Positions 6,230 through 63,714 of a stretch of 64,000 bases of DNA are shown piece by piece (positions within the stretch are counted from its first letter, which is position 1; every line of letters starts with the position of its first letter). The DNA is taken from contig JAYWIR010000001.1 in assembly GCA_036172245.1 (NCBI GenBank), positions 11,470,001 to 11,534,000 of the forward strand. Direction: 5' to 3'. A program made the translations under genes and the position numbers. The DNA comes from Raillietiella orientalis. Its lineage: Eukaryota. Below the pieces are notes generated by a model that saw nothing but the letters and a program-made list of their open reading frames with translations, did not search any database and had not been told where the DNA came from.

Positions 6230-8172
6230 TGAGCAACGAATGCCGCATTGGATGTTGAAAAGGATTTGGCCTCCCTTTCTGAAAGTCTTGTGGACTGAAA
6301 AGATCCATGACCAAGACCAATACTTTCAGAAAGGGAGACTCTTAGAAAGATCATTCTGATAGTATCTAAGCGTCTTGAGGACCACCCTTTCTGAAAGTTG
6401 GCGAGATCAGATCCGCCCGGTATGCCTGTCGTGTCGGCCCACATCTTTGCTGCTGCTCCCCATGACAACCCCGGCATCCGCACTCGAGGACTTCCAGTTG
6501 CTAAGTCGGGGTGCAGACCTTGAGGCGAACAGGGCGAAGTCATCTATTGGCGCGACGAGGCCCAGACGGTCGCACTGGATTTGCTTGGGGATCCTCACGG
6601 GTGGGTGATTCAAGTACCTTGGAATTCCCTTGGGGGAATTCTGCGTTGGAAGGTTTTACTTGCAGGAACGTGCCGCAGTGTGGAATGAGTTTGTGGTTCC
6701 TCTGCTCCGTCTCCTACTTTTTGTATGCCGCGTCTCATCCAACATCAGGAAGCGAACCAAGGACCTCTTGAGGAAATCCCTCTGGGGACAGGGAGGTGGC
6801 TACGCGTAGGGATGGTGGACTGGGTCTCCTTACGCTGGAGAGGATGAAACCTCAGCTCCAGATCAGAAGACTCGCCCTTGCATCCAAGTTGTGGATCACA
6901 GCATGGTGATCTCCGGCTCGAATTGTTGTTTAGCGAGCAGCTGGTTGCGAAAGACTGACTCTGGTATTCGTGGCCACCGGGCGAAGTTTGAGCTATCTTG
7001 GCTCCCAGCTCTGAAAAATGGTTACCTTGGTCTGAAGGAATCCCTGAATCTCCTGTCTTCCCGCGAACTGGACTGCCTGGCTGCGGGAGTCAGTTCTCGT
7101 CTTGGGTAAAATCAACGGCACGAGCGAGGCAAAGAACATCTGCTTGCGAAACAGCAGATACACTCGTTTGTCGTCGAGTTTGATCCTGGGTAACACCAGG
7201 AATCCACTGTGGGCTTCGTTCATCCCCCCTTTCCCTAGTAATGTCCTCCTTCAAACACTCAAAGGACAGCGACTTTCCAGGAAGATGGGAGGCGTCCTGC
7301 TGCATTGAAGGCAGAAACAAAGTTCTGTGCGCGTGGACTATTCGGTAACTCACGGACTCTGTGATCCCAAGTGGCCCGTCGAAAGGAATTGTACGCTGGA
7401 GCGAGCTCCTCAATCCCTGCGTAGGAGGTGAAGTGCTCTCATCGTTCTGGAACAGTGGCACCCTCCCTCTCGAGTGACAGGAGTTGGCGTTGCTGGTGTC
7501 GCATTGGGGGATCCATGCAAAGAGCGCCTCCACCTGTACTGGGGGGAGGGGGATTGTGGATGCCAGTTGTTGAAGGTGTCGGGAGAAGGAGACCCGGTTG
7601 GTTCCCGTTCTTTCTGCTAGACTGTGCCGTCCTCCGATCGTTTTGGGATTGCCTCTCGACCCTTGGAATCCCGGTTAGAGGTTCCAGGTATTTTCCGACT
7701 CCTCTTCGTGCGTATCGCAATGCCGCAGCCGCGTATCTTGCAGTGCTTTGCTGTCTTCGTGGGATCGTGGTGGTATGGATGGCCAGCAGAAGCCAAATTG
7801 GAAGTGAAGCCATCCACTGAACTACAATCTTCTTGAAGGCCGCCTCGAGATGACCCCATCTGGGTAACCTATAAACAGAACTTGTCACCATCGTGTCCAG
7901 GATGCTGAGGACTTCTCGCAGGAAGCGTGTGATCCCATTCCCGTTCCCTTCCCCCTTTCCCAGTAAAACTTATTCTCCTGTTTTTCTACTTTTGTTTGTT
8001 TCTTGTTTTCCGGTTTTTCCTTCCCCATCGCTGTGGGAACGGACTTCAAAGGTCTCCGTACCGGTCATGGCAAGTTCCGGACACACGAATATAGTGTTTA
8101 GACCACACTAGAACATCTACGTGTTTTTTTTCTTATTGAATAATAAATGCCCCGGAAAAACCGAGTGGAAAA
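6230..8172 (+). mobile_element. L1/Tx1-type LINE, 5'-truncated and decayed (RT to 3' terminus)
   Basis: Remnants LLLLPMTTPASALEDF and LLDCAVLRSFW...LAVLCCLRGIV match the 1194-aa ORF2. Pyrimidine-rich 3' UTR, AATAAA at 8142 and terminal hairpin CCCGG-AAAAA-CCGAG-TG. Confidence 0.8.
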
Positions 8173-8615
8173 CTTGATGCAGAAGAAAATGGCGAAGCAC
8201 AGCAGTCGCAGAATTGATCAGAACTAGAGTCTTACCAGTTTCGCAAAAGGTATTGGAGACTTCGGCGATATGTGTGCACGTTAATGATGGCGCCTCCGAC
8301 CTCGATTGGAACTAAACACTCTCGCGTAATGGACTGATTCGAAATTAACAATGTCCTAGATGAACACTTCTAAAAGAGTCCAAAGGACCAATCAGACCCG
8401 ACAGCAGGAGAACGCATCCACTGAGATCATGTTTTGTGGCTCGTCATCCGTTGGAACTCGAACTTTCAACAGAAGCTCGGGCCACCCACGGCAGATGAGA
8501 GAGTGGACCAATCCAAGAGGTAGGTACGCGCGTTTCGCTCCTGAAGACTCGAGCTGTGGCACGGAACACCAGGAAGGACAACGACGAGGCAAGGGACAGC
8601 CTCACCTTCAGAAAC
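8112..8615 (+). repeat. Left arm of a 504-bp inverted duplication
   Basis: Reverse complement of 9529-10032. The same ORF translations (MNTSKRVQRTNQ...) appear on opposite strands. Confidence 0.95.
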
Positions 8616-9528: not shown

Positions 9529-10032
9529 GTTTCTGAAGGTGAGGCTGTCCCTTGCCTCGTCGTTGTCCTTCCTGGTGTTCCGTGCCACAGCTCGAGTCTT
9601 CAGGAGCGAAACGCGCGTACCTACCTCTTGGATTGGTCCACTCTCTCATCTGCCGTGGGTGGCCCGAGCTTCTGTTGAAAGTTCGAGTTCCAACGGATGA
9701 CGAGCCACAAAACATGATCTCAGTGGATGCGTTCTCCTGCTGTCGGGTCTGATTGGTCCTTTGGACTCTTTTAGAAGTGTTCATCTAGGACATTGTTAAT
9801 TTCGAATCAGTCCATTACGCGAGAGTGTTTAGTTCCAATCGAGGTCGGAGGCGCCATCATTAACGTGCACACATATCGCCGAAGTCTCCAATACCTTTTG
9901 CGAAACTGGTAAGACTCTAGTTCTGATCAATTCTGCGACTGCTGTGCTTCGCCATTTTCTTCTGCATCAAGTTTTCCACTCGGTTTTTCCGGGGCATTTA
10001 TTATTCAATAAGAAAAAAAACACGTAGATGTT
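9529..10032 (-). repeat. Right arm of the 504-bp inverted duplication
   Basis: Reverse complement of 8112-8615; spacer 8616-9528. Confidence 0.95.
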
Positions 10033-11080: not shown

Positions 11081-11199
11081 TGCTCTCTCTCGCGGCAACC
11101 CATACGTGCGAGATGAAGGCATCACCTGATACTGCAGGCCCGCCAATTGGCGGACTCCGAAAGAAAGATGTTCGGAACACCCGTTTCGTTTTCCTGCTA

Positions 11200-12949: not shown

Positions 12950-14650
12950 CAAGACTGAAAGGAGGAATCATTCATTCCGTATTATTTTTATGTCATTGTT
13001 TCTTCGGCAGGCCTATCCGGGAAGCAATGTCTGCTACCTGCTTTTCAACCACGGGCTTCGAAAAGAGACCGAGTCACACTGGACCATTGGAGTGGAACTC
13101 ATAAGAAAGCTTCTCATAAAATTGGAGCTCTCTAGTGGCAACGAGGGGAAAGTGACTTTGGCCAACTGAGCACTTTGTGTCATTTTCATCAGCAGTAATA
13201 CATTTGGATGTACTATTATTGTGTGCTTTTCTTCGTGGCGACGCCAAATTTGAGAAGAATCTTTCCGTTGATTTTGATCAAAGCAGCCATGGGTTGGTTG
13301 GGTTTTCCGCCACCACACGTCAGCATGCAGATGCTCGCTTACCGACCTCAGGCAATCCTCGCTAGTCCGAGATCAACTCGCTGTACCCTTAGGAGGGATT
13401 CTGCCATTGTCGGCTCACTCGAAGCGCGCGACACAGTCAGGCGACGGCCGCAGGTTGACCTCATACGCAGTCAGCTTCCTGCAGCCGGATGGTGCACAAA
13501 ATGATGGTCCATGGAAGGAAAGGGATCCCCCATTCCGTCGACCTCCGACATTTTCCAGACTGCCGCACAAGGTCGAGGAACCGACGTTTGGTTTTCAGAC
13601 AGAGGATTCGTGGTCGTGCGCACTGCCGGGAGTATGACACATTCCAGGGAACACCGCCAGCAACGCAAGCACCGCTAAGCAGTGTCGAAAAAACTGTTCT
13701 TGTGACCGACACGTCCGTTGTTTGTCCCTCATAGCGCGTTCGTGAGAAACCCGTTGATCTGCAGAGGCACTCCTGTTCCCGAGATCCGTCTCTGCCTTTT
13801 CTTTCCTTTTTAAAGACCAGCAGCGAACTCACCAGGAGATCTTATTGATTGGAATCCATTGAGGTTCTTGTGTTTCTTCTGCTTTCCTTCCTCCTTAGGG
13901 GGGTCCACGAAAACGTGAAAGACGCCACCCGAGGGTGACTTTCTTTAATTTATGGTAACTATGGGACAACCTCATAGTTAACACCCTATGAATCCAGGAG
14001 GGCTCTGGAGGAAGGAGTCCGTTCCTCTTGATAGAGAACCCACGAAGGGAACCCTCGCCCTGGTTGTATCCAAAGAGAACTCAGGAGGAAAGTCTTCCTT
14101 GTTGTGCATAGAAAGACTCCTCGGAGGGGGCTACGCCCCACTTCTCCTCCCAAGAACATCCTCCAGGGAACCACCCCTTGTTTCCTCCTCGGAAGGCAAC
14201 CCCAGAGTGACGCTTCTCAATCTCTATGAGGGACGCTCCTCAAAGGGAGCAGCGCGTTTCTGACACTATGGAGAAGCAAACCAATGGAGGGGGGAGGTAC
14301 GAACCAGCTCCATAAAACAACTCCATCTTCTGCTCCGTAGGCGAACTTCCGAGGTGAACTTCCTTGCGAAAGAACCAGCTCCTGGATTCCTGTAAGGTCC
14401 TGGGGAGTCTATTTCTAATCCCGGCCAGTCAACGGTTTCCACCCGTTCCGCCGCACTCGGAGCCCATGGGTCAACCAGCGTCATCCTGTGGGCGGGACTT
14501 GAAACCCCTGACGCATCCATTTCTTGGCTCCAATCCTTCTCCCGGTGGAATTCGAACCCGCAACCCCTGGTACCACGCGCTCAGACCACCAACTCGAACC
14601 TACAAAGAACCATTGACAATGGTTCGTGCATTCTCTTTGGTACTTTCATC
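12950..14650 (+). mobile_element. Decayed Penelope-like RT fragment followed by a copy of the second-family repeat unit
   Basis: LCVIFISSNTFG...LIKAAMGWLGFPP resembles PLE RT motif B (GxAMGSPLSP). Segment 13980-14600 is homologous in reverse to 59930-60490. Confidence 0.4.
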
Positions 14651-14879: not shown

Positions 14880-16360
14880 ACTCTTGCTTCGAAATCTCAG
14901 CCCACATTGGTGGAAATTTGCGGAAGACAGGCATCGAGGACACAGGGCACAGGCCATCAAGGGACAGGCGCGCCTGAAGCCCTTACAGTAGCGGTAGATC
15001 TGCGCAAAGCTTTCTACTGAGTGGACCAAGAACTCCTTCTGGAGCTCCTGGAACACATGGGATTCTCGGCCGTCTTCCTGACCTATCTGCACTCCTGCTG
15101 GCTCTTCGAGATAATATTTGTTTCAGCGGCCGGCACGCGTACGGCGTGCCCGTTCATCGCGGAATCAGACAGAATGACAGTCTGAAGCCCCCGTTCTTCA
15201 GCATCTACTTGGAGCTGGTGCTGAGAGCATACAGGAGACTCTGACAACCCTGCGGAGCTCGTGTCCGGGCACGCCTGCCGTGTCGGTTTACGCGGACGAT
15301 CTTCTGCTGCTGCTCCCCATGTCCACCCCGACTTCTGCACTCGAGCGCTTCTTCGAGCTGCTCAGTCGCGGGACGGGACTGGAGATGAACAGAGCGAAGT
15401 CGTTCGTAGTGTCTATCGGTGCGACATGGGCCGGACGGCCGAACTGGATTCGTTTGGGAGTCTCCACGGGAGGGTGCTTCAGGTACCTTTGCGTTCCGTT
15501 GGCTGACTTCGGTCCATCTGAAGTCTGATCAGACCGTCTCCTAAAGGTGGAGTTGGCGATCGGCCCGTTCCGGAACAGCAAGTTTTACTTCCAGGAATGG
15601 GCCGCGGTGTGGAACGCTTTCGCAACCCCCTTCCTTCTTCCCTCACTTTTGTTTGCCCACCCCACCAATCATCAGAAGACGGACCGTGGCGGGAGTCGCC
15701 GTTGTTGGCGTTCATGGGGAAATTCCGTGCAAATTGCTCCTTCGCCACTGGACGCAAGGGGGGGGGAGGGAGGGCGCTGAGTGTGACAGGTGCGGGAAGG
15801 AGACACTCCTGTTCCTGCTGTTGGATTGTGTGCCCTCCGACCCCTTTGGTATCGCCTCGCGACGACCCTTGGGATCCCGTCGTGCAGCACCAGGGACATT
15901 TTCAGACGCTTTCTCATGCGTACCGCTCTGCCACCGCCGCATCCCTAGCGGGATCGCGGTGGCCTGGAATGCCAGAAGAGGAGGCGAAAATAGTGAGAAC
16001 GTCATCCACTGGGCGCAGATCTTCCTGAAGAACGCCTCAGGATGATCTTACTCTGGAGAGACAAGGAAGGAACTTGCCAGCACATTGAACAGGATGCGGG
16101 GAGGCCTGGAAGCGTACAATGATCCCTTCCTCGATTCCCCTCTCCCTTCTCACCTTGTGCAATTCTTCTTCCCTTGTTTTGTATGTTTACTTTTTCTGTT
16201 TTTGTTTCATCTTTCCCACACTGCCGAAGAGGATCTCGCCAGTCTGCTAACCGCTCTTCGGCAGGTCCATTGCAAGTGGTAGGGGAGCCTATGGTTCTAC
16301 CATACCAATATATTTTTATCATTTTATATAATGAATGCTCCGTCATAACCGGCTGATAAC
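14880..16360 (+). mobile_element. Main LINE family, 5'-truncated, internally deleted copy with 3' terminus
   Basis: AVAVDLRKAF, SVYADDLLLLLP, C-terminal finger, 3' UTR stem CTGCCGAAGA/TCTTCGGCAG, and degenerate terminus CTCCGTCATAACCGGCTGATAA. Confidence 0.85.
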
Positions 16361-16479: not shown

Positions 16480-17136
16480 ATACAAACATCAGCTTCGGCA
16501 CTTCCTCCCTTTGAAGTGGTAGGAGACGACGCTGCTGGTTTTGCATTGGGGAGCCCCCAGTGCAAAGCGCGCCTTCGCCACTGGACACGGAGAGAGTCGA
16601 TCCGGTGGCGGACGCGACATGTGCGGGGCGAGGGACACCCTCTCACACCTGTTTCTTGACCGTGCTGCCTTCCGGCCCCCCTGAGAACGTTTCTTGACAA
16701 TCCCCTGGATCGCCGGGAGCAATCCCAGAAACGTGTTCGAGTTCCTGCGTGGCTGGTGCGCTGCCGCGAGCTGCGTGCTTAGAAACTGTTTGCTGCAGTC
16801 GGGGCAGCATGGAAGAGGCTAGCCCAACAGGGGTGCCATCCACTGGACGAAACTCCTTCCGGGAATTGCAGCGAGATGGGTCCATCTGCAAACCGACAAA
16901 CTCCAACTTGTCAGCATCCTCCAAAAGATGAACGGGACATCGCAGACACGCAGTGATCCCCCCAAACAAACAACTTTTTAACCTTTTTTATTTATTCTTG
17001 CTTTGCTTTTTGCATCCCCAGTGTCTACGCAGCGAACCCTAAGTGGCCAGTGGAAAGGAACTTTTGTATATGGTAGCACCAAGAGTCCTGTCCTGTTTAT
17101 TCTTAAAATAAACTCTCCGGCGTATCCGGGTGAATA
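16480..17136 (+). mobile_element. Main LINE family, short 3' fragment with terminus
   Basis: PLKW*ETTLLVLHWG remnant, GTGATCCC end-of-ORF motif, AATAAA at 17107 and CCGG-CGTAT-CCGGG-TG. Confidence 0.8.
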
Positions 17137-19789
17137 GCCTCATCGCTCCGGCATGTAGTCCTGGTCTACCCAGACACCACTTAGCTTCGCCTCCGCGGAA
17201 GCTGCTGGGGAGGCGGTCATCAACGTCCGCGTCCTCCGTACACGAGATGATCTCGTCCTGGATTTTTCTCTGAGAAAAAACGTCCCTTTTAAGTTCCCTG
17301 CAGTCTCAGCCGTTACCGAGAGTACTACCGAGCGCCCATATACAGCACCACACCCACGAAAGAGATGTTTCACTTGGAAGGGCACTGCGTCGGTAGAGCA
17401 CCTATTCAAGAACCCACTCACGCCTAAGCAACAACCCGTGGGAGGCGAAACGCGTTGCAAGCCGCTGGCCAACCTATGAAGCAAGCCCCGGCGTGCAGCT
17501 CCCCATCTGAAGGTGCAAGTGCAACGGTGACCCTGACCTTCTTCTCTCAGACACTCGCTTCCGAGGTGTTGCTGCACACCCACTGCCGGGAATCGAACCC
17601 CGGGTTACTGTTGCATGCTGCGAGAAAACCAGTTGTCCAGCTGACTTGGAAAGTTTGTGATGCTGCTCTCTGCAGGCGGGCGTGGACGATTCGGGGTCTT
17701 CTCAATTGAGACTAGGAGATGACGGCACTAGAGAAAGCGAGGTTGATCTTGCAGTTGCCAATGCGATGATTGGAATGTGATAGGGGTGCTAAAGGGAACG
17801 TTTAATGACGAGGATGTATGTGTTCGTACGTATTCGTACGTGCGGTTTTTAGATCTTCGTTGTTTTTGGTTGGTATAAGGTGATGTGGGATTTATTGTTA
17901 GATCGTCGGAGAGAAGGATGTCACTTAAGAGTTCATCATTTGGTGTGTTCCTTTTGAATTTGTCGGTTTATAGCGTTTATTTACGGCTTCCTAAATCTCA
18001 AGTGGAGTCTGCTTCCTAGCGTTGAAGTAAAGGAGTTGTGGATTAGTGCGGCTGTTTAGGAAGTATAGGTATGGGGTCGTTGGAGTATGTTCGGCGGGAG
18101 CTAGAGTGGTTAACGGTATTATTAGAGAGGGGACTGTATCTTCGGCAGGTAGATCAGAAGTAATTGTGGTTCATGCTTCAGTGTGCCATATTACAATGAT
18201 TGTGAATGGGACGTTCATTGTAGGGTAGGAGAAGATGAAAATCATAGGGTGCTTATTGTTGTTCTTTGAATAATGATCGTGTATATGAGGATGGTGAGGG
18301 TAGAGGTAAATGGCTTGTATGTGTGCTACATTTGCCCTCAATTAGGTGGCTGAGACAGATTATGGAATGCATACGGTAGACTTAGTAATCATGGGTTCAT
18401 GATCCTATTGAATCATAGATAGGAAGTTAGGAGTGGTAACGAAGGGTTTTGTTTTGCATGTGACATCGAGGGTGATGAATATGGTGATGGTAATGAGGTC
18501 GTGAGCCAAAGTAGTTTAATGAGGATGGTGATTTGAGGTATCGTAGGTGATTTTTAAGTTGCTCTCGGCTAGAGTAATGATTACGAATATAGGATGGTAG
18601 GGAATTGGTTGAGGTGTTGTTTATGATGTTACGAGTGATTATGAGGATAGGAAAGTTAGAGTGAGGTAATGTTTGTTGCAGATCATACGCATTTGTTGTT
18701 TATGTAGTATACTTGTGCTAGTGATGATTTATGGCAGGGGATATGTAAGCTGAATATAGAAGCGCTTCATGTTTTTGTATTTTGGATAGTGGTGTGGATA
18801 ATTATGATACTTTTGAGGGATAATGATTACCATTCGGTCAGCACTGCTTTGAGGTGAGATGGATTAAGAATGTGTTCCTTATTGTTTGGTTATTTTTTTT
18901 ATAAGTCGTGGCTCTGATTTTATTAATTGAATTACATTTTTGAGTAATCGTAGTAATGAGAGGATTTCATTGATGGGCATGATCACGAGCGCGCGGTTGC
19001 CTATTGGCACTTAATTGTCGAAGACTATGGGTATTGGGGCATCTACTCCGCCTCCGACATTGGTTCGGTAGCCCATTTTACCTACGGCCAGAACTTAATT
19101 ATTGATACTGTTTAATGAGGTCGAGTTGTTGAGTAGGGTGACAGTTATGGTGTATCTTGGGGTTTAGGATTTGAGGGGAGCATCGGGGATGTGGAGATTT
19201 ATTTTGCATTGAGGCAGTGAAGTATGACATTTATGGGATTAGGGATGAGAATGTTATCATTAGTTGTTTACACGGTTTGCCGTATAATACATTTTCCATT
19301 ATTGAACAAGAAAATATCATGTGATATTGTGGCACTAAACCAAATAATGAGCTGAGATTACTTGGCGCGATTGATCTCACGTGAACGCCCATCCAAAGCA
19401 ATGCGGCCTTTGTTTGGATCATGCAAGCGGAACAGAAGCTAAGAAAAGCCTTGCTCACGGGCAGTATCATAGGCGAAGAAGGGGACTGAGCCGTGATTAT
19501 TGCTAGTTGAAAACTTTACCCAATACCCCGCCAAGGCAGTGCGTAAAACCACTGCCGCGGCAATTTTTGTGTGCCCCGAGAGGGCAAGTGCTTGAAAAGA
19601 TAGTGAGTGTGGACGGCAACAAGTAACAGTGCAGATGAGCATCTTCACCAGTCGCGTCGCGGCAGCACTACAAGAGGCGACTTGCATCCAACGGAGACGG
19701 CGACGGGAACTCATCAGCCCACCGCCGGGATGCAGGAATCCAGGATGGATCGGAGGCCGACGTCCCCCATGGAAATGAAGGTACAGTAC

Positions 19790-19985
19790 GGCATTGGCGA
19801 GGCGGCGGCGACGCCAAGGATAGCGCCCGCGGCGGCAGTTGTCGCGCCCGCCGCGACGACGGCGGAGGTCGTGCTCGCGGCGGCGATGCCAAGGGTCGCG
19901 CCCGCGGTGGCGGCGACGGCGGCAAAGGTTGTGGCCGCGGCGTCGGCATCCCAGGCGGGACCCGCGGGCATCCACGCGGCACCCA
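19790..19985 (+). repeat. GC-rich imperfect repeat encoding an Ala/Pro-rich low-complexity tract
   Basis: Two related units, GCGGCGGCGACGCCAAGGATAGCGCCCGCGG and GCGGCGGCGATGCCAAGGGTCGCGCCCGCGG. Confidence 0.6.
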
Positions 19986-20007
19986 GTGTGCAGAGCGCGA
20001 CGCCATC

Positions 20008-21295
20008 TTGCTAATGGAAGAAGGACTGGGCCCGAAGATCAACGCCCAGAAGAGCCAGCTTTTGCCCTTCGGAATCCTGGATCTCTCCGCTCTCACGGGG
20101 AGAGGATTCCGAACGGTGGACACGGCCAAGTACCTGGGAGTCTACATCGGCGACGACTTTGCGTCGAAGCTATTGTGGACGGAAATCCTGGGGAAAACGG
20201 CCAAGGAAGCAGCGAAGTACACTAGCCTGGAGTTCGGAATGAAGCGACAGGCCAACCTCTGGAATGGATTACTCCTTCCAAAGGTTCTCTTCGGAGCGGC
20301 CTTCGCCAGGATGAACAAGGAGACCACCCGCGAAGTGGAAAAACTGCAGAGAAAAACACTTTGGGGACACCATCGCTTAAGAGTCTGGTTAAAGCCCCTG
20401 TGTCGTCCCAGGGAAGAAGGCGGCTCAGGGATGAAGTCGCTTGCACATTCCATGGAAACCATGGATACGCGGCACATCCTGGATATCGCTACTCACTGGG
20501 ATGACTGGCCGTATGCGGCACACAGGGCTTACGCGTTGTTGTTGAACAACTCGAAAGGCCTGATGACTGCGCTGCTAGGCCGAGCAGGGGAATGGATCAA
20601 CACCGACCCAACCTGGAGGAGAAAGCAACGGCTGGTGAGCAAGCACAAGATCAAGATCGTGCCGAGAAGCAGGGAACTCTGGCAGGAGGAATCCATCCCA
20701 TGATCCCGTGGATGCTTCCGGTCCCTGCGGACACGAGAAGCTGGATCTACCAGCGGCCCAGAGTTACCCTGCAACGCATCCAGGAGTGGAGACGAGGAGG
20801 CTACGTACATCACACTCGTATACTTCGCTATATAGAGATGATGCTAGGCAGGTTCACCCATATGACCCGCGAAGTGTGGATAAACCACAACGACTTCGCG
20901 TGGTCTAGGTAACCAAGATGAACCTCCGGAGACTCATTAAGGAAGAGGACAAAGACACTAGTGCCCTCCAAGAAGCCGCCGATCTCTACGGGAGTGACAG
21001 GATCAACCTGCTAGCGATCGGCACGACGCTTTGGAGGAGTGACCTTCCGCCTGGGACCCAGGATGACCTCCTGATGTTTTATCATGGAGGAATCCAGAGT
21101 GGGTCCAGGCTCAAGTATTTCACAGGAAGAAGGGACGACGAAGACTGCACGGCATGTGGTGACATCGATACAAGATTACATATCTTGACGTGTCCCACAT
21201 TGCTCCACGACTGGCTGATCCTGAAAAGGATCATTGGACTGACCACCAGCTCCACGATGGAAATCCTTGCCGGGATGTTTCAGGGAGACGAATAA
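20008..21295 (+). pseudogene. ORF2 3' half of a second, unrelated L1-type LINE (two frameshifts)
   Basis: GPKINAQKS, KYLGVYI, LCRPREEGGSG and C-terminal finger CTACGDIDTRLHILTCP, split over three ORFs in different frames. Confidence 0.8.
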
Positions 21296-33035: not shown

Positions 33036-33236
33036 TTGTGCCCTCCCTACATTTCTCCTTTTGTTTGTTTTTTGTTTTATTTCTTCCTACCCCCGCGCGT
33101 TGAATGGACCTCGCCGGTTTTTGCGCCGGCAACTAGCTTGCTGTTATGCAGTGGTGAGCCCTTGAGTTCACCACAAGAAACTAATATGAACTTTTATTTG
33201 TTTCAAATAAATGCCCCGGCACATCCAGGTGATAAA
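33036..33236 (+). mobile_element. Main LINE family, 3' UTR-only copy
   Basis: Pyrimidine tract, two hairpins, and AATAAATGCCCCGGCACATCCAGGTG. Confidence 0.8.
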
Positions 33237-38082: not shown

Positions 38083-38299
38083 TTTTCACCCGGATTTCTC
38101 CGGGTCGTTTATTAAAAAATAAACTTTATAAAGTAATTATTAATGGCTGTGGCAATGCTCCAGCCAGAAGCTAAGATCCACGGAGCCTGCCAATTCACCG
38201 GTTTCTAGACCGGTACGGTCCACAAAGGCAGCACGGGAAAGGAAAGAAACAAAAAAACTAAACAAAAAGAAACAAAGGGTGGGAGGGAACGGGAAGGGA
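38083..38299 (-). promoter_or_regulatory. 3' UTR and terminus of the ORF2-complete copy (pyrimidine tract, structured region, AATAAA, terminal hairpin)
   Basis: Ends in AATAAACGACCCGGAGAAATCCGGGTGAAAA; same layout as the other copies. Confidence 0.85.
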
Positions 38300-45921: not shown

Positions 45922-46680
45922 TTTCTCACCCCGTCACGCCGGGGCGTTTATTTTAGAGAAAATAAACCAGCTGGGAACAGAGTTCCCAACCGACGACAAA
46001 ACAAGCAATGGGGAGGGTCTGCTGGCACGCAGGCTGGCATAACGGAAGTTTGGAACCGGACAGGAGGTGGGAGACAGCCAAAAAAAATTAAATGTGGTGG
46101 GATGGGACAGGGGTCTTTAAGATAGCGCCGGGAGATACTGGGGTCAAAACAAAAACGCCGGGGAAGTTGCGAAGCAAAAGGGGATGGGAGATGAGGAAAA
46201 AAAAAAAAAGATGTTGGTAAAGGGAAAGGTCCACCGGGTTCCACCGTTCTTAACTGTCCATCAACCGACGGTGGATGTCGACGATCTCCTCCTTTGTTTG
46301 TTCTTCCAGGTGAGATCACCTTACAGCCATTCTCATGTACGCGGCTGCCAGACTGTGGACCTCCCTTCACTGCGCTCTCGTCCCCATGGCGTAGCGGGTC
46401 TCAGCAATGTCGCGAATTAAAAAGCTGTTGGAACTACGGCGCCACTGAAAATCCGTTGCTCCTGAAAAAACGCCACCGCAGATCCTTCTCAGAGTCCTCC
46501 TGGAACGGGGCGCCTAAAGCCAGCCACCGCCACAGTCCGCGGAGGGCACCACAGTCGAGCAAAAGGTGCCCGAGCGTCTCGATCTCCCAACACCTCGAGC
46601 AGTTCCGGGAAACAACTTCCCTGGAAACGAGGCTTTAGCGCTGATTACACGGGAACTCCCAGTGTTAAAGCAGCAGCAAG
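45922..46680 (-). mobile_element. Main LINE family, decayed 3' fragment with terminus
   Basis: CSRCWEIETLGHLLLDCGALRGLW remnant; terminus AATAAACGCCCCGGCGTGACGGGGTG. Confidence 0.75.
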
Positions 46681-48665: not shown

Positions 48666-51600
48666 ATCGGAGGTAACGAGGGAGGAGGGTTTCCTTCGGG
48701 ACCTCCCACCAAGCGTAAGAGGAACAAACTCTTTTTCTCCAGAGTCCTTCCTGGATCCGTAGTCCTTCCCTACGAACCCAGTCCGGGATTATACCCCATA
48801 AATTGAAGAGTTACACGCAATTCGGCTGACGTGCACAGTGTTGAATAGTTTCGTAGGCCTTCCCTGAGGGGCCGAACGGTTCTTCAGCACTTGGCGAACC
48901 AAAAAGAAGACAATGCGAAAAAAAGAAAACTGAGAGGGAAGAAACGAAACAGACAAATCCGAAAGGATTTCCATCGTCCTTTGCAAGAGCAGTGGGAGGG
49001 CATTGCAAAACTGCAACGCTCGTCGTTCTTAAGGAAGAGAGCACTCCCAATGGATGCTCTCAGCTGATGCTCAGCCTTGTTGTCCACGAGATAAGCAACG
49101 ACAGCGTTTTTCGAAAACCTAGGCAAACCATACCAGCAAGATGACCTCCACGTCTGGGTACCAAACGTAAGTGACTGTTCTGATTCTCCACGTGACTTTC
49201 AGAGACCGCCGTTTACCAAGGAAAGTCTCTTTCTCAAAGTCGACCGATGAAGCCCTAATCGTCACCGACTAAGTGGCACGTCAGCTGTAGCTCCACAGGG
49301 CTCAAGTTCGAAATGATGACTCTTGTGTGCCTCAGAATTATAGGTTTATTTTCAGTCGGAATTAGTAGGAGAAGGAAACTGTTGCCAAGGTCACACTACT
49401 CAAAGAAAGCTTTTAGCACACGTTGCAACCTCAAATCTTCAGAAACGGAAAACTTCACGCCAGCAATTCCCATGGATACCCCGGTCCAACCGCCACGTAA
49501 AGTTTCCTCTCGATTTCCCATCCTTCTCATGCCTTTGTTTGCTCCTTGATCTCGAAACGTATCTCTCCTTTCAAGACGTCAATCGTTGTGATCACTTTTT
49601 CCAACATCCTCGTAGACAGCTCGAGAGTATTCATGGATGAGGAGACGAATATGAGGTAGCAATCGTTGTTTATCTGCAAAAAGATACGAACGTGACCGGC
49701 ACTCTCTGCAGGCAGAAGAATTCTTGGAAGGGACAGGGGTTTCTGGCAGATTTGACCCAAGAAGACGGAGACTGAAGGCGAGCATGAAGATGCAAAAGCT
49801 CCCATAGCTTCGGTTCGCCCCGAGGAAAATGCGACCTTGAGAAGCTCAGCTGAGAGACACGTGAAGTTCGGAGGACGAGGTGAACTCGAAAGCGACATTT
49901 ACGAAGAAATGAGACCAGCCTAGTCATCCATGCTCTGCTTCTCAACCTCTCAAGATGGCAGTTGAGTACGCTACCATGGCTGCAGCGCAAGGCGATGGAA
50001 GAAGCGTGAGACACGAGGGGTTCTTCGGAAAGATCCCGCCACAGCCTAAGCGATTCGGCATTGAAATTTTCCCACGAGGAGGTCGCAAGCGGAGGGTCAG
50101 GCTGTCCACCTACCTTGAAGTGGTAGTCGTCATAATGAAGGGTGAAGCTTTTCATCAGGCTGAACGAGATTTCTACGGTGGGCTTGTACCCGGAATTCGC
50201 GTTGCACTTGAACTGGAAAGACGTCCTTCGCTTGTCCTCTATTGCTCGTGAGGAAACCGACCTTGTAAAATCCCCCACTGGGAGAAGCGTCAACCAGCTT
50301 CGCCAGCCTCTCGGTGAAAGACTTAGGAGCGGTGCTGAGGAATTTGTTCATACGCAAGGGTGCGTACAGATTCCTCTCCTTCAAAATTTCGTTGCCGCTC
50401 TGGAGGATCCGCAGCCTACCAAAGGCGACTCAGAAAGCATCTTCAAGCGTTTCGACCGCCGGAGGTTTGGATTCTGCTTACGCTGCCGGAGATAGGCCTC
50501 CGCGCTTTTTGGATCGAAAGCGAAGGAAGCAGAAACCTCGCATGCTGGAGGGAGCTCTCGGAAATATTTAGAGAACGAGGCCCAGAGCTCACCCTCGCAG
50601 TGTGTTGCAGGGAGGGGGAGGCAAAACCTGGGAAGCGCTCCTACCTGTACAACTCGATGGCGTAATCGGGTCCCGTCTCCAGCCCGATGTCAATGCCGTT
50701 CTCGGGGGCGGTTCCGCTGCCCGTCATCTTGTCGAAGTCCACGTCCAGAGTCCCTCCGGATTTCCTGAGCGCCCAAAGGGGTGCGCATGTGCCCAACCGT
50801 CCATCGCCTTACCCGTCGAAAGAGAACCTCATCCGAAATGCGCCCAGTCTCACGTGTTTGGCAAAGTCTTCCAGGTTCGTTCTCGATATGGAGTAGCTGC
50901 CGAGGTGCACAACGTGTATCAAGAAAGAGCTAGAGCGTCTCAGCGAAAAGATGCTCTGCATCGTTCGGTTGTTGGGTCCGATATAGATGAGCCTTCCCTC
51001 TTGTTTGGGCGTCTGGAAATTTGCAGCTCGCAGCCTGTGTTGTCCTCGTCCCCCTCCCTTTGCTTTCATTTTGCAAGCCTCAAGGCGAAAGAAAAGCGTT
51101 CTCGAATGGCTCCTTGCATTCGGTCAGACCGAAGTAGGAAAGGAGGAAGACAAAGCTTTTCGAAAGACCTTCGTGACGTTCTTTCTGGAAACAAGGAGGG
51201 AAGCGGCGAGAACGCGAGCTAAGGTTGGCTTGTGGGACATCGCGCAAACGGAAGGACCATCTCGACAGAAACGCGGCAAACGTCCTCGGCGGCATAGCAA
51301 CCGCTGCGATACACTTTCGTGAATGCCACGGAGGGTCCTTTGGGTTAGCTGATGTTAGAAGATTTGTTCTTTGGTTCATCCTGGAGGCGGTGCGCGAATT
51401 CCAAGAAGATGGCAGCACTGCGTCGCACCTTTCGTAAAAGATTCACCTACCGCAAGGTCGTACGCCTGATCGACTACTGCCACCGTTGAAAAAAGATTCC
51501 TCGAAATTCTCGTCTTTCCACTCCAGCTGGTTGAACGGAAGCTGCTGAATCTCTGAACGGCCCCTGGTAGAGAGAGGAACGTTCGAGAAGGCAAGGAGCC

Positions 51601-52559: not shown

Positions 52560-55500
52560 GCTTGCCTGCACGCCGGTGGTCATCCACAAAGCTCTTTTTT
52601 CTTCTTCTTTTCTGGCATCTCTTGTATTCGGGGGACGCTATTCCCCTCCGACTTGTGGTTTATTTATTAAATAAACGACTCGTCGTGACCGAGCATTCCA
52701 CCATCTGCATGTCACACATTACAGAGCTGTTTCTCCCCACGAAAAGAAATCGACTCCTTCAGAACATTTCCGCACGGCTGGGAACAGCGGCTCAAACCTC
52801 AAACTGCCACCCGTCGACAAAGCAGCTGTACTGTCCTTCCAGACAACTCCAGGAGCACGGCGAAGCCTCTCAAAGATTTCGTTTATCACGCGGTCACTCC
52901 GGGCGTTCCTTCGGGAAACAAGTAAAATCGAAGGCAAACGAGGTCACCGAGAACGCAACTCCCGAGACAAAAGCAGCGAGGAGACGTCCGCGAGGGGACT
53001 TCATCAACACTAGGGGCGGTTGCCAAACGAGAAGGGAAGGGGAAGAGGCAAAGAAAGAAATGAAGAGATCATGGGGACAGTGGGTCCTTGGAAGGAACTG
53101 TTCCTTCTTGCTCATCATCGGCGCCCGGTCCCTCCCATTTCCGGTACGACTTCCTCCTCCAGATGAAGACGGTCCTCCTGCAGGCGGCATCTGATCTCCC
53201 ATCCCCTCCCGAGTGTCCAACGCCTGGCGGGATGCAGCCGTCCACCGTCGACATCGCCGCTCCAGCAAAGAGTCCTCCTCGCGAGAAGAATCGCCGCAGC
53301 AGGTCCTTGACGGCGTCCTCGGGGTGCAGGACTGTTGAAGACAGCCTCCGTCACAGTTCTTGGTGGCCGCCGCAGCCCATCAAGACGTTCGGCATCGAAT
53401 CAATCGTTCCGCACCTGGAGCACCCCGAGCACGCAACTGCCCAGCTCATGGAAGCGAAGTGTCGGCGCTGGTTGCACAGGAAACCCCCGGTGCAAGGACA
53501 AGGCTTCGCGGCAACACGCCTGCTGGGAAACCTGCAAGCAGCGCAGAGGAAGACGTATCCGCAGTCCGCAACCAACCAGGGAAAGATTCTCCCGTGGAAG
53601 ACAGGGAAAAGAGGGAGCCGCAAGAGGCGAGGGTGGATTCCGAGGAGTCTGCGCTTGCGATGGAAGCTGGAAACTCAGGAACGGTTGCACCCAAACTGCT
53701 GGACGTCCTCCGCTTACGCGTGCGCTGCGTGAGACGCTCGAATCCTCGACGTCCCTTCCGTGGAACTCGGGCAAGCAAGGGCATGGACGTCGTCACTCTG
53801 GCCATCCGGTATGCGACCCATCACCCCTCGAATCACCACGAGATTCGCTCGCATGACGCGACACATCCGCACGCTGGTTGCCTGGGAGACACGCACACAA
53901 AAAGACGGAATATCAGCAGCGCAGCGCAGTCGGCGCCATCTTTTTCTTTCTCTAAAATCTTCCTTCTCCTCAGCAGTCCTCCTCGCAACAAACCCTGCGG
54001 AGAGACCGCATGGAGATTGGGAGCCTTTTAGAAGCCGACCTGGAAACGAGTGTCCCCTGTAGCGATCCCTCCCTGTTTCGGGCATTCTGCTCACGCATCC
54101 TAGATGATCCAGGGAATTGGCAAAGCCCACGCTGGTGGTCTCCGTACTCCTTCGGCCGGCGACCAGCGAACAGGTGTCAAGGATGGCATCAATGCCCGGT
54201 TGTCCCGTGCAAGCACCGGCAAACCCCTGTTGGCGGTACTGCCTTAGGCTAGACAAAGAGTTTTTCCGGGACGGATCATCGGCTCCGCACCCTTTCGGAA
54301 GAGACGGAGGGACGTTTCGCTTTCGAACTCCGTGACCTAGAGGTGCACGGGAGCGCTGAAGACCGATCAACGGTTGGGCAATCGCAGGAGCCGCCGAACT
54401 CCTGTGCGGCTGGAAGACGGGCGACACGGAAGTGGACGCCCCACTTCCGTGTCCTCGCTATGTTGCAAACACAAAGTGCTGCTATTTCTGCACTGGGGTT
54501 TCCAGAACAACCACCTCGTTTCCGAGGCAGCTTCATGCACGAGCCGTACCAGTTGCGAGACGACCGAATCGATCCCGCACCTGGTTTTGGACTGCGGCAG
54601 GGCCCAATTGCCGACCCTCTCGCTCGGCATTCCCTCTCCAGAGATTCCGCCTAGCAACACGCTACGGGACACACAGAAGCCTTCGCAGGAGCGAACCGAG
54701 AAAAACAGCATCCCACTGCATAAGCCGCACCAGCTCCTTCCCGGAATCTCCTTCACTGACCACACCCAGTACTCCTTGAACGACACACATCGGCAACTCC
54801 TCTCGGACCCCTCCGTCGCGTCTTTTTCCAGTCAGCCTATACGCGCTCAGGGACGCCAACGGGAGACCCTGATCGCGCGACTTTCAAGTGGCGCGAGTGG
54901 CGCGCGGGCCGCCCTCGAGAGAAGCCACCTTTCGAAGCCTCCCACGAGCATCCAGACTCCTGCGACATTCCGCGGCACAGGCGCCTGCACCTGTTCTCCG
55001 ACCAGGAGCTGTCAAGTGTGCTCCAGGAAGAGCAGTCGCTCGTCGCCGTGCTGCGCACACAAAATGCTCGCAGCGCCTCCATCCGAATCTCGAAATCGCG
55101 GCGTTCATGGGAGGCAATGCCGTAAGAGTGGCAACACCTGTCACCGTAAATCTTTGGCTGAGCAAATGACTTAATACGCGTGGAGGCTGGAGTGGTAGAA
55201 AAGATGATGAATGGACCTGTTTTTCTTTCTTTCTTGAGAGGAACAAAGCAAACAGAACGACGAGCGACAACTAAAAAGCGATTTATCTTCGGGTGACTCC
55301 AACGACTCCAGGGTGCAGCTTTCTACTCTCTGGAACGTGGGATCGGTCCGCCTTGCGCCTGATCGTTCCCGTTGCCGCTCCGAGCGCTTTCCTCCGCACG
55401 AAAGGTCGATTTTCCTGGCCGGTTCTTATTGCCACTTCTCGGTGCCCGCAGGACTGACAGCTGCCGTCTTCGTGATCGGCCGTTAGGCGCTCCCGTGCAC

Positions 55501-57959: not shown

Positions 57960-59117
57960 TCCGCCGTTCTTCGAGCTGGCGCTAGCGAAGCCTTTTCGAA
58001 AGGGGTAAGTCGCGCACCAGGTTTCCTCCTCGCGCCAGGTAGTGCTTGGTTGCAGGAAACCGTTCTCACGTGGGCGAGGAGCCAGGAGCAACGCACGGAA
58101 AAGGTACGCCGGCTCCTGTTCGTGCGCAACAACCGATGCAGCTCCGAGAGATCCTGGAGGATCCGGGAAAAAGGGCGTGGGCAGGAAGCACTTCTCTCGC
58201 TGCAGCGCTGCTCTCCTCGAGGGAACCCATGGGCAGAAGACTTGAGGCTAGATGGGAGCTTACTGTGGAAATCCGCGGAAGCAGAAAATGACTGAGCGAG
58301 TGGACGACAGGCCAGTTCCCCGACTCTGTGACCCCGAATGCTCGACCTCGTGGACCTTAGCGCCCGGGCGTGCTACTGGGTATTCCGGAGGAAGATCCGC
58401 AGCGACCCTTGGTGCTCACGAACACCCGCATTCTTCCCTTAAAGTGGCGGGAGTCGGCGTCGATGCTGTTGCACTGGGGTCTCCCGTGCAACATCCGCTC
58501 CCATCATTGGTCACGGGGGCGAGAGGTGGATCCGAAGGTGCGTGGAGCGGGAATCTCTCCCGCACCTCCTAGTGGACTCTGCTGCCCTCCGGCGCCTTTG
58601 GGGACGCTTTGTCTAGACCCCTGAAACCCCCTGTGGCATCTTCAGAGACGTTGTACAGCTCCTCTTCCTGCGCAACAACGTCTCACACCGGCCGCCTCCC
58701 TAGCGGCACTGTGCTGCCTCCGTGGGATCGTGGCGGCGTGGAACGACGCCAGCCGACGGGCCAACGATAGGAACGCCATCCACTTCGCTCTTCGCTTTCT
58801 GCGGATAGCGACCAGATGGCCCCACCTGCATATCTCCATGAAAAAAGACCTTGCCGGTGTCCTCCAAAAGATGCAGGGGACCACCCCAGCAGGTTGTGAT
58901 TTTGTGATTCCCCCAAAATTGCTCCATTTTTGTTTTGTTTCTCTTTCCTTTTGTTTGGACCCTCCCCTCCGCTGCCTTGCTGAAGCTAACCGGTCCGCGA
59001 ACCGGTAACACGGCAGGGTATCTACAGAAAGGACGTGGCTGGACCACCAGTCCAACCACAAAAATTGTAAATGTTAATTTTGTTTTGAGTAAACGCCCCG
59101 CCGAACCCAGGCGAAAA
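57960..59117 (+). mobile_element. Main LINE family, 5'-truncated copy with terminus
   Basis: GSAWLQETV, ILPLKWRESASMLLHWGLPCN, LRIATRWPHL; terminus AGTAAACGCCCCGCCGAACCCAGGCGAAAA. Confidence 0.85.
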
Positions 59118-60640: not shown

Positions 60641-62624
60641 TGTTTTTCCTGTTGGTCAGCGGGATGAGGTCGCTTCGGTCAGCACACCGGGGGTGTTTGT
60701 GTTGCACATATGCTGGAGAGCACCGCCAGACAAGTTGGGGCAGTTGCAGAAAAGTTTCCCTTCCCTCCGAACGATGGTTGCGGAGGAACGAGCGCCGACC
60801 GGCGTGCAGAATCAACCAGGCAGCTGGCCGTTTGGGATACCTCAGCTGCGGGGAGCGGAAACCAGGGGGGTCCACATGTCTCCAAGGCACACAAATGATG
60901 CAAGCCGCGTAAGCTCCCTTCGTCAGGGTCACCCGCCTGCGCCTTTGAGGAAGAGCTGCGCAAACGCACATGGCGAAGAGCCAGGTGGAGGCTACGGTTG
61001 CGCTGAGCAGGGGGCCATGCTGCGGGCTGACCTGCGAGATCCCCTCGGCGGGTTCTGAAGGACCAGATCGAGGGCAGGGCGCCGCCGCTCCACGCAAGAA
61101 CGGACCAATCGGATGCGGTCCGCGTCCGTAGCTAAACCACTGTGAGGAAGGCGGAGGAGGAAGTCATCCGTCTACTTCCGGCAAACTCGGCCTCATGCGC
61201 GTCGTGGAGGGAGTGCGCCCTGGTGGCGGCGCTCGCAGCTGCGACCGGAGCCCCAGGGCTCTACTTCTCCGCAGAACCGCGAAATCGGCTCGGAACTCTT
61301 CGGTGCTGCGGTCCGTGGGAAAACAGCCGCTAATCTTGCATCCCGTCCTCGCTTCCGGGAAGAGCGGGAAGGGTAGGGGCGAGGAGCCTCCCGGGATGGA
61401 GTGAGGTCGGGCCGGCTCACGGCAGTGGGCGCGCCTTCTGGTGCTGACCCTGGTCTTTCTCAGCAGATCGATGATCTGCTCTCCACCCCCATCCGGTTGA
61501 TGTCCTGGTAGTTCGCTTGCATCATCGACCCCTCAGCCTGCCGTCCCCGAGCGGGTTCGCCCGGGCTGTCCGCGTGGACGACGTTTACGACCCCGAGACC
61601 ATCCTCGTCCTGCCTCAGGCTCAAGCCATGGACCAGGAGGTCCGTTGGCGGTTGAGAGCTGCCCAGGGGAGGCCCCCCTGGGCGCTCCGGAACGACGACG
61701 GAGGAGGAGGAGGGGTTGCCCGAGGGGGTCCTGTTGCTGCGACACTCGGGGGTGGTTGCGTGGTGGTCGGGGTGCCTGCGGTGGGTGCCCACGGAGACGA
61801 TGGCGCGCAAAGGGAGGGAGCCGCTTGGGTCGCCCTCCTGGGGGAAGAAGGCGTGCGGCTCCTCGTCCTTGCCGCCGAAGATCCTCCTTTAGGTTAGGCT
61901 CGCTAGTACTCCTACTGGGCGCTCCGGCGAGGAGAGGGGAGCGCGACCCTCCCGGAGAAGCGCTCCCTTCTGGGGGCTCCCAGGCGCCGCCGCCGGTGGG
62001 CGGTAAGCAGCACAGCCCCATGGCTGGCAGATCCCCCGACCTCGTGCACACGCGGCGACCCTCGGGAAAGCCCAGAAGGGGTGTGGCAGAACTCGTTGAG
62101 TACAGCGCAAGAGGAAGCGGCGACCGGGATGGAACAGGGCGAGGGGCCCTCTGGTCCAGAGCGTCCCCGGGTGGTCCCAGTCCTCGAGTCTGCCGCTGAG
62201 CGGAAAGAAACTGCAAGCGCGCTTCTCGCTGCTTCGGATGCGCCCGGCAGACCCCCCTTGGAAGCCCCCGCGCGTCTCCGCGCAGTCGCGAGGGGAGACG
62301 ACCTGCCGAAGCGGTGCAGCCGAGCAAGAAAGCGGGGAGGAGACCCAACGCCCCAGAAGGTAAAAACAAAACCTGAGAAGACCGACGAACAAAAGTATGA
62401 CCGCGGCGGCGGCCCGCGAAACCCTTGGGGTCAACCTCGTACGCCGACTGGCAAAGGGAGAGGGAGGAGGGGGAAGAACGAAAGGAAGGAACAAGAGAGG
62501 AAGAGCGCTCTCCGCGGAGACACCGGAAAGTCGCTTCCTAGCGGCGGTGACCTTGAACGAGCGTTCGCGCGACCGATGCCGCGGCAGGAAATGCGATCGT
62601 CGGGGTGGTCGATATCGCCTCGAG

Positions 62625-63714
62625 CGATTGCGGGCCCCCCGCGAACGGTAGCACCTGGTTGCAGGAAGCCGTTCGCACTTGGGCGCAGCACGAGCCACGC
62701 TCGGAACAGGAACAGCGCTCTCTGCACTGCTTTTACAACAGCTGCTCGCTACGGGAGATCCTGGAACACCCATTGAAGAGTGCATGGGCAGGAAGAACCT
62801 CCCTCTCCACAGCGCTGCTCTCCTCAGGGAACACACGGGCAGCAGCCTTGAGGCGAGATGGGAGGTTAGTGTGGAATTCTCCGCCAGAAGGAAATGACTG
62901 GGTGAGTGGACGACGGGCCAGCTCGTGGAGGCTGCGACCCCCAGTGCTTCCCTCCCACGAGGACTTTTGAGCTGTGACGAGCTACTGCGTATTCCTGAGG
63001 AAGACTCGCAGTGGCCCCCAATGCTTCTGGACACGCACACCCTCCCCCTAAAGTGGCAGCAGTCGGCATTTCTGGTGTTGCACTGGGACCTCCCCGACAA
63101 CGCCCGCTGCTCCCAGTGGACCCGGGCGGCTGTGTATCCCAACTATTGCAGGTGCGAGGAACGGGAATTCCTCTCGCACCTGCTTGTAGACTGTGTGCAC
63201 CCCGGCCCCTGTCGTTGCGTAACGCAACGACCCTTGGGGCATCAAAGACAATCCCAGGGACGTCTTGAAGCGCCTCCTCGTGCGCGATGCCCTTTCACCT
63301 GCGGCATCCCTATGCTGCCTACTAGGGATTGTGGTGACCTGGAGCTATGCGAGAGGAGGACGGCGCTCTGGTGACGCCAGCTGCTTCGCCCTGCATTTCC
63401 TGAGGATGACAACTAGATGACTCCACTTGGGACATGCTCAGAAGGAACTTGCCGGCATCCTGGAAAGGATGCAGAGAACGCCCTCCAGCGGACAGCGATC
63501 TCTTCCCGTGCACCCCAGAATCTTTTTTTATTGCTTTTATTTATTCTCACTTCTGTTTGCCTCTCTCCCTCCGCCGCCGAGGTGAACCTCGCCGGCCTTC
63601 GTGCCGGTTACGCGGCAGGTTCCGAGCATGCTCTGACAATGTAGGGCTGATGGCCCTACATCTGTATGTTTATTATTTTTTATAATAAACGTCCCGCAGT
63701 GACCGGGTGATAAA
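62625..63714 (+). mobile_element. Main LINE family, 5'-truncated copy with terminus
   Basis: PANGSTWLQEAVRTW, LPLKWQQSAFLVLHW; terminus AATAAACGTCCCGCAGTGACCGGGTGATAAA. Confidence 0.9.

Follow-up and report, generated by a model that had tools for sequence, protein, structure and literature searches.

A tail-less hairpin 3' terminus in an L1-type LINE family of Raillietiella orientalis

Nested LINE copies and their coding regions

The window analyzed here, a 64-kb stretch of Raillietiella orientalis DNA (contig JAYWIR010000001.1, positions 11,470,001 to 11,534,000), is a pile of nested fragments from long interspersed nuclear elements (LINEs) that are 65–78% identical to one another. The copies end in a common motif that consists, in element orientation, of AATAAA, sometimes with one base changed, then three bases, CCCGG, a loop of 5–6 nucleotides (nt), CCGGG, and TG. 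This motif is the precisely defined, tail-less 3' end of an L1-type LINE and is found genome-wide.

An open frame for the second open reading frame (ORF2) of the element (P0001, 38300–41953, minus strand) spans 1217 amino acids, comprises an APE endonuclease, a reverse transcriptase (RT), and a C-terminal zinc-binding motif, and ends ∼190 nt upstream of the terminus at 38083. It matches RVT_1 and, weakly, zf-RVT; the APE domain (Exo_endo_phos) scored in the full-length genomic copy L116. ORF1 (P0002, 42422–43384, minus strand) is N-terminally incomplete and shows CCHC zinc-knuckle-like motifs. P0002 gave no Pfam match at 1e-3, and L116, which carries the same type of ORF1, gave a zf-CCHC match below the cut-off. 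A feature similarity of 0.92–0.94 to zf-CCHC and ZCCHC3-RBD clusters, the nearest clusters being mostly from arthropods, serves as a lead only. In L114 and L116, both ORF1 and ORF2 lie between target-site duplications.

The closest solved structure to ORF2 is human L1 ORF2p (E 3e-45; R2, E 1e-13), and its top named homologues are L1-type proteins of plants and vertebrates with 22–31% identity. The L1-type assignment of the original prediction is thus borne out by domains and structure match as that of an L1-clade APE-RT LINE. CCHC knuckles characterize the ORF1 of Tx1. Together with the target specificity described below, this apparent ORF1 type suggests an affiliation with Tx1 rather than L1; no named Tx1 sequence was among the matches in the homologue and structure searches. 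Among 1.84 billion representative sequences, one long match was 73% identical and one fragment 65%, and all others reached at most 37%, a scarcity of relatives that points to a lineage-specific family. Outside this genome, 12 metagenome sequences matched the pattern of the terminus; none was L1-like in protein, and we read them as chance bacterial matches.

The 3' termini in the window

The exact pattern CCCGG-N5-6-CCGGGT gives seven strand-matches at six sites of the window, compared with a mean of 0.07 in 30 dinucleotide shuffles. All 14 termini listed in the original prediction are real: four are perfect (34230, 34844, 35993, and 38104), eight carry one change, and two carry three changes (16339 and 59097). 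AATAAA is exact at 10 of the 14, the remaining four having AATGAA, AAGAAA, AATTAA, or AGTAAA. Two additional termini had been overlooked, one at 9993 and a degenerate one at 52903, both on the minus strand.

At 8142–8171 (plus strand), the terminus has the loop AAAAA, one change, and the tail GAAA, and the preceding ORF2 C-terminal remnant stops at 7925. The overlooked terminus at 9973–10002 (minus strand) is a second copy of it and not an independent insertion, as it lies within a perfect 504-bp inverted duplication. The two arms of this duplication (8112–8615 and 9529–10032) are ∼900 bp apart and hold one terminus with its 3' flank; they represent either a recent rearrangement or an assembly fold-back. 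Further along the plus strand are a degenerate terminus at 16330–16359 (AATGAA, three changes, tail ATAA), one at 17107–17136 (loop CGTAT, tail AATA), and one at 33206–33235 (loop CACAT, tail ATAA), upstream of which no ORF2 remnant was found on the same strand. On the minus strand, termini at 27507–27536 (loop CGTGA, tail GTAA), 30780–30809 (loop CGCAA, tail ACAA), and 32076–32106 (6-nt loop GCGTAT, tail ACAA) precede the four perfect hairpins, all of which are on this strand as well. The first of these (34210–34239, loop CTTAC, tail AAAA) lies antisense within the ORF2 of another copy, at about amino acid 792, and the second (34824–34853, loop CGCAC, tail TAAA(A)) has an 11-nt direct repeat ∼8.8 kb upstream as a candidate target-site duplication. 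The third (35973–36002, loop CGTGA, tail AAAA) is within another copy's ORF2 at about amino acid 910, and the fourth (38083–38113, 6-nt loop AGAAAT, tail AAAA) is within another copy's RT at about amino acid 585.

The terminus at 45923–45952 (minus strand, loop CGTGA, tail AGAA) is inserted antisense in an endonuclease-coding region at about amino acids 75–78, the same site as that of the genomic copies L001 and L002. The overlooked degenerate terminus (52883–52912, minus strand) lies ∼150 nt past a diverged ORF2 C terminus. The last two are on the plus strand, a degenerate one with three changes and the tail AAAA (59088–59117) and one with the loop AGTGA and the tail ATAA (63684–63713), which sits within the C-terminal region of another copy's ORF2 at about amino acid 1096. 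A copy at ∼48500–48700 (plus strand) retains intact upstream hairpins (described below) and has a lost or heavily decayed terminal motif; a copy ending near 27017 (minus strand) is without the terminal motif too.

The motif as the genomic 3' end of the family

Abundance was determined by pattern searches of the genome of the window (210 Mb), with the reversed pattern as control. CCGG-N5-CCGGGTG occurs 2935 times (control 87) and AATAAAYGHYCCGG-N5-CCGGGTG 1519 times (control 0); with a 6-nt instead of a 5-nt loop, the AATAAAYGHYCCGG pattern occurs 425 times. Conversely, when 61 ORF2 C termini were picked without regard to the motif, 45 carried it 139–263 nt downstream, called at no more than five deviations in 19 scored positions (the minimum in 60 null windows was six). 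Among the remaining 16, which have suffered more decay or interruption, none showed a compensated alternative stem. The 30-nt end is therefore a near-perfect annotation tag for this LINE family.

The conserved end is larger than originally described and reaches ∼110 nt upstream of AATAAA, itself near-invariant across termini. The loop had been called variable, which holds for its length of 5–6 nt and not for its sequence: the bases C, G, Y, and R are present in 125, 112, 141, and 144 of 150 termini, respectively, counts that are inflated by related copies. Likewise, the tail is short as claimed, and its supposed general A-richness is more exactly a pattern N-N-A-A. In 162 termini, TG is followed by two variable bases, A at +3 (93%), and A at +4 (86%), and the sequence is mixed thereafter. 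The two variable bases are common to the members of each subfamily (TCAA, GCAT, AAAA, TAAA, and A-N-AA), and the AA is universal.

Insertion junctions and target sites

We searched 210 termini for target-site duplications as upstream matches, with at most one mismatch, to the 13-mer starting at +5. Duplications were found for 37 termini; control offsets gave 3, 4, and 4, indicating that about one in ten of the 37 is due to chance, and L135 and L103 look so. Across the 37 junctions, identity to the 5' copy of the target rises from 0.14 at +3 and 0.32 at +4 to 0.95 at +5, in agreement with the original prediction that the joined sequence lacks the tail. The duplications are 11–16 bp long (mode 14). 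The tails measure 4 nt in 21 junctions, 3 nt in 12, and 5 nt and 6 nt in two each; a tail of 3 nt is ambiguous if the base of the target and the fourth one of the tail are identical. Because this search was anchored at +5, an unanchored one was also run; here, 25 of 209 termini had exact duplications beginning at offsets 2–6, and 13 others were scattered, singly or as one pair, over offsets 7–120, a scatter without a peak of 3' transduction. Inserts among the 37 range from 52 to 5843 nt (median 486 nt), that is, up to full length with frequent 5' truncation. Insert lengths and duplications are as expected for target-primed reverse transcription (TPRT) from the hairpin end. Mismatches are not in excess at the first duplicated bases (identity 0.95, compared with ∼0.97 inside the duplication). 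Microhomology between tail and target was considered and rejected, since there is none at +3 or +4 and the value of 0.43 at +2 is at most marginal.

A run of eight A's within 8 nt of the motif occurs at 5 of 2935 loci (nine overlapping matches). At one of these, L037, the run belongs to the duplicated target; the remaining four possibly represent copied tails, which would be rare. The old copy L153 has GAG followed by eight A's. Four rare termini (L031, L032, L038, and L039) have 8–14 A's beginning at +1 to +3 after TG; in them, a longer stretch of a poly(A) tail could have been copied. Long poly(A) tails on young copies had been named beforehand as counterevidence to a tail-less end and were looked for: in 18 of 18 copies with a sister at least 93% identical, the A-run is no longer than three. 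As the NNAA tail is not derived from the target and is equally short in the youngest copies, erosion of longer tails is excluded.

Among the 37 targets, the duplication starts with AAA in none, with AA in one, and with a single A in 18, so that priming at T-tracts on poly(A), in the style of human L1, does not apply. Neither hallmark of relaxed-type, mammalian-like L1, a copied poly(A) tail and a TTTT/AA T-tract primer target, is found in this family. At the second base 5' of the nick, C is overrepresented (22 of 37), a bias indicative of the endonuclease.

Each subfamily has its own target, often a fixed site in sister copies or in one other repeat. Of 210 3' flanks, 61 match ORF1 or ORF2, and insertions into ORF2 cluster at about amino acids 78 and 86 (antisense), 179 (sense), and 1092 (antisense). 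Two subfamilies are inserted antisense at fixed sites in the endonuclease region of sister elements, one at about amino acid 78 (45923–45952 in the window, L001, and L002) and one at about amino acid 86 (L027, L058, L060, L115, L126, and L127). Another 16 termini, mostly TCAA-tailed, have 3' flanks that place them at almost the same point of a single abundant repeat with copies at dozens of loci (L005, L014, L054, L070, L084, L088, L089, L121, L142, L152, L155, L164, L167, L168, L174, and L178); with ORF1 and ORF2 as queries, 1 of these 16 flanks gave a match, a weak one.

The window contains no tRNA, and the short copies seen in it are 5'-truncated LINEs; a partner among short interspersed nuclear elements (SINEs) was not identified, no genome-wide SINE search having been made. 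A full U4 small nuclear RNA (snRNA; 19447–19585, plus strand, 93 bits) lies just upstream of a distant LINE fragment (19639–21289, plus strand) that is 26% identical to P0001 and whose 3' region enters TA/TATG repeats without a hairpin motif. A U2 snRNA remnant with a degenerate 5' part (3563–3741, minus strand, 51.6 bits) is followed by no visible poly(A). Words resembling the T-arm of tRNA (GGTTCGA-type; ∼14530–14580 and 17570–17620, minus strand) were called by neither ARAGORN nor Rfam and are possibly decayed tRNA or SINE heads, or a LINE 5' region.

Structure of the 3' untranslated region

Two covarying hairpins lie 30–110 nt upstream in the 3' untranslated region (UTR). The first, with a CUGCGH loop, was found in 111 of 210 termini and in 14 of 209 downstream controls; it precedes AATAAA by 60–110 nt. 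Its loop-closing pair varies among CG (56), TA (36), GC (7), and TG (7). In many cases, a CTGCCG/CGGCAG stem surrounds it and the second hairpin, which is variable in sequence, comes next. In the window, the copy ending at 35973 contains the first module (36060–36104, minus strand), with the outer stem around the covarying CUGCGH-loop hairpin (36070–36087), and the copy ending at 63684 contains the second hairpin (63639–63661, plus strand), which covaries across subfamilies. A U-rich tract is also found upstream of AATAAA.

Covariation was evaluated in an alignment, A1, of 77 of 91 non-redundant candidates, 14 having been dropped for apparent insertions or mis-anchoring. Pairs 37–44, 34–47, 93–120, and 94–119 are compensated, with 12–25 two-sided changes each, and the structure as a whole outscores all 500 shuffles and every slid control; the covariation is inflated by relatedness, and 21 rows had been selected for stem changes. 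These 21 rows, from loci picked for double changes, also account for an apparent compensation in the terminal stem, which we therefore discarded. For the upstream 90 nt, folding has a modest advantage over shuffles (mean z −1.24, compared with −0.32). The family thus has a 3' UTR that is conserved and structured across divergent families, a feature of stringent-type LINEs.

The terminal hairpin directly adjoins AATAAA. It may extend to 7 bp by YG:UG pairing around a bulged C, which is possible in 131 of 149 termini; the mean pair probability of this form is 0.54, and in the one register evaluated it gains no energy. Immediately 5' of CCGG, 1519 copies have C or T, both of which can pair with G, and 29 have a purine; transitions are also the commonest type of mutation. 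Of the first 100 copies with a 6-nt loop, counted by hand and representing few lineages, 53 use the additional base for a sixth pair.

Several other candidates were rejected. A kissing loop between the upstream UGCG and the terminal CGYR is wobble-complementary, yet the pairing equals that expected from independence (0.73 and 0.74; 0.60 and 0.62), and the same applies to long-range pairing between columns 21–26 and 60–64. Searches of the termini with Rfam and ARAGORN matched no known RNA family, ribozyme, or tRNA. The motif is also not the host's histone stem-loop, since host H3/H2B genes carry GGCCCTTYTYAGGGCC in four of five loci and the LINE motif differs in sequence; the histone search of this genome returned 66 histone-family matches, many of them short or with stops. 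Host H2B is most similar to a group of Drosophila PDB entries (E ∼1e-68; entries with vertebrate-style names, 1e-57 to 1e-59), which, like the mostly arthropod ORF1 clusters, indicates an arthropod-like host.

Initiation of reverse transcription

From its sequence features, the terminus is probably a stringent-type 3' end: the transcript would be cleaved and polyadenylated at about +3 under the control of AATAAA, and the hairpin would determine where ORF2p begins reverse transcription, one or two A's into the tail. The U-rich stretch and AATAAA would direct normal processing just past TG-N-N-(A), ∼22–24 nt from the signal. ORF2p would then bind the structured 3' UTR and recognize the terminal hairpin by sequence as well as by shape, which would explain the lack of covariation in this hairpin. 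It would set the 3' OH of the nicked target on the RNA at a constant distance from the stem, one or two A's inside the tail, and would thereby either bypass the rest of the tail or act on a tail trimmed to a protected end. Site choice would be left to the endonuclease of each subfamily and not to A:T pairing. An RT-recognition hairpin, as originally suggested, is the likeliest role of the terminal motif.

Some observations weigh against this mechanism. As the original prediction had noted, the terminal stem lacks compensatory change: it does not covary in the 56 unselected copies of A1, which contain no compensated pair. Genome-wide, 18 double changes at one pair of this stem compare with ∼16 expected from independent decay (calculated from 155 single changes on one arm and 1519 intact copies, arm symmetry being assumed). 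The adjacent pair has 19, and by hand count 8 of the 18 and 9 of the 19 are the double product of CpG transitions. Folding of the terminal hairpin beats shuffles in just one of three copies tried. RNAalifold recovered the terminal hairpin only, and neither upstream one, and no covariation is seen in the outer stem around the first upstream hairpin. One subfamily (GCAT/ACAT) has a T at +4 that is absent from the 5' target copy in two junctions, which an encoded or read-through end would fit better than a start on poly(A). Finally, human ORF2p needs ∼20 A's between stem-loop and active site (PMC10830416), so that the geometry in the present family must differ.

Alternatively, the template may be a non-polyadenylated RNA with an encoded end, cut or trimmed in a hairpin-dependent, histone-mRNA-like manner, or a read-through RNA that continues into the flank of the donor copy. 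The start of ORF2p at +4 would come about through an R2-like jump onto a free 3' end or be aided by base pairing of the read-through RNA with the primer strand, and AATAAA would belong to the recognition element. R2 itself uses no long poly(A) priming. Such a template is the main alternative, though we consider it unlikely. It would account for the T at +4 and for an overhang fixed at 4 nt, the first four or five target bases are common within subfamilies and could pair with read-through RNA, and the host does use stem-loop-ended histone mRNAs. However, the histone hairpin of the host has a different sequence, and the terminus retains an intact canonical AATAAA at canonical distance with a U-rich tract upstream. 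Pairing with RNA also leaves the C enrichment 5' of the nick unexplained, the first duplicated bases show no excess of mismatches, and in L031, L038, and L039 more of a tail seems to have been copied, unless these targets were A-rich. The boldest reading would be that an animal L1/Tx1-type ORF2p gave up poly(A) altogether, docking on several hairpins, reading an invariant hairpin by sequence, and starting 4 nt past the stem on non-polyadenylated or fully trimmed RNA without annealing of primer and template. We put this forward tentatively; if true, an L1 enzyme of the APE type would handle its template as R2 does, and this would have been maintained in many subfamilies that each evolved a different DNA target.

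It is rather improbable that the hairpin serves mainly in 3'-end processing, by shortening the distance from AATAAA to the cut or by replacing a missing downstream element, with ORF2p recognizing the upstream covarying module and the short tail following from its position there. AATAAA does adjoin the predicted stem at an almost fixed spacing from the end, and the covariation is indeed found upstream, but a module at a variable distance of 60–110 nt from AATAAA would be a poor ruler for a start fixed within ∼1 nt, and a mere spacer hairpin would be expected to drift in sequence, which the terminal hairpin does not. The DNA recognition site offered as an option by the original prediction would be a pair of CCGG palindromes that a protein of the host or of the element recognizes as duplex, for transcription termination, as a promoter of the downstream neighbor, or in cDNA handling. 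This option is not favored, and we give it very little credence. Both arms are palindromic and invariant without compensation, as a DNA site would be; yet the same pattern has a 6-nt spacer in 425 copies beside the 1519 with 5 nt, the upstream hairpins covary, and a cDNA start 4 nt downstream would be left unexplained. The occurrence of both spacers in large subfamilies and the rarity of a purine opposite the outer G favor an RNA hairpin over a paired DNA site, as does the sixth pair in half of the 6-nt loops counted, with the reservations on mutation type and lineage number given above. That ordinary poly(A)-tailed copies lost their tails after insertion can practically be dismissed. Mammalian poly(A) tracts do shorten with age (PMC3812793), and five loci have eight or more A's, but these are 5 among 2935, the tails of the 18 youngest copies are as short as those of old ones, and intact duplications directly abut the 4-nt tail. 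The terminus is best read as the 3' end of a lineage-specific radiation of L1-clade (Tx1-like) LINEs with stringent initiation that appears to be guided by RNA structure.

Comparison with known LINEs

The closest parallels within the L1 clade are the monocot lineage 1a (LINE1-1_ZM with ZmSINE2/3) and L1-1_CR of Chlamydomonas, described by Ohshima (PMC3472496, PMC3747384). The original prediction, in contrasting its termini with known L1 ends, had overstated the difference, given these stem-loop ends. Like the family described here, these elements have an L1-clade ORF2 and a 3' hairpin conserved across divergent families, with loop and flanking bases kept, for which recognition by RT was inferred. 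In contrast to the present family, their stem covaries and L1-1_CR has poly(A), whereas here the terminal stem is invariant, the upstream hairpins covary, the end is tail-less, and the host is an animal. L1 families without a 3' repeat amount to 9 of 233 in flowering plants and 5 of 15 in green algae (PMC3472496, PMC3747384). Stringent 3' stem-loops are established for L2, R1, and R2, and in the L1 clade they have been proposed for the monocot lineage and Chlamydomonas (PMC3472496, PMC3747384, PMC5135761).

Stringent L2 elements (eel UnaL2 and zebrafish ZfL2-1 and ZfL2-2) and SART1 of the R1 clade also have a 3' UTR stem-loop near the end (PMC5135761, PMC7265360, PMC3747384). With a loop of 5–7 nt and a bulge 4–6 bp from it, their stem-loop resembles the predicted 7-bp bulged form of our terminus, a marginal likeness. 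They belong to other clades; TGTAA repeats terminate UnaL2, and SART1 has a poly(A) end that is required for accurate starts (PMC7265360). The present family has neither. The structured 3' UTR of R2 from Bombyx mori, in which more than one stem-loop sets the position of the template (PMC11194090), is comparable, whereas R2 differs in its restriction-like endonuclease and single rDNA target and is distant in sequence (E 1e-13).

Among Tx1-clade elements, which target other repeats, Tx1 in Tx1D, Tx1-Mar in Mariner-N4, Keno, Kibi, and Koshi share the animal host and the fixed sites inside other repeats with the family described here (PMC4494074). SINEU, the proposed passenger of Tx1-Mar, has poly(A) (PMC4494074), whereas none is copied here. 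In PMC4746887 and PMC3812793, nothing on the 3' ends of Tx1 was found. We found no published description of this motif or of a tail-less, hairpin-ended animal L1/Tx1 element in a search that covered titles and the starts of abstracts, with few subscription papers and no Repbase. The strategy itself is known from other groups of jumping genes; it occurs here in an unusually strict form and does not define a new class of element.

The relaxed-type human L1 shares APE and RT, duplications of 12–18 bp, and frequent 5' truncation with our family (PMC10830416, PMC10830420, PMC12503042). A stem-loop in the template also helps to set the TPRT start of human ORF2p (PMC10830416), which is otherwise built around poly(A), with ∼20 A's needed for threading and T:A pairing of 4–6 bp for priming at TTTT/AA sites (PMC10830416, PMC10830420). 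Here, by contrast, none of 37 targets begins with AAA, and at most two or three A's are copied. Thousands of precise tail-less ends at targets without T-tracts hence constitute a natural test, in an animal, of Ohshima's proposal of ancestral stringency for the L1 clade. Because recognition of the RNA, with one common end, is separable from targeting of the DNA, with many subfamily sites, the system should lend itself to in vitro work and could interest developers of site-directed insertion tools.

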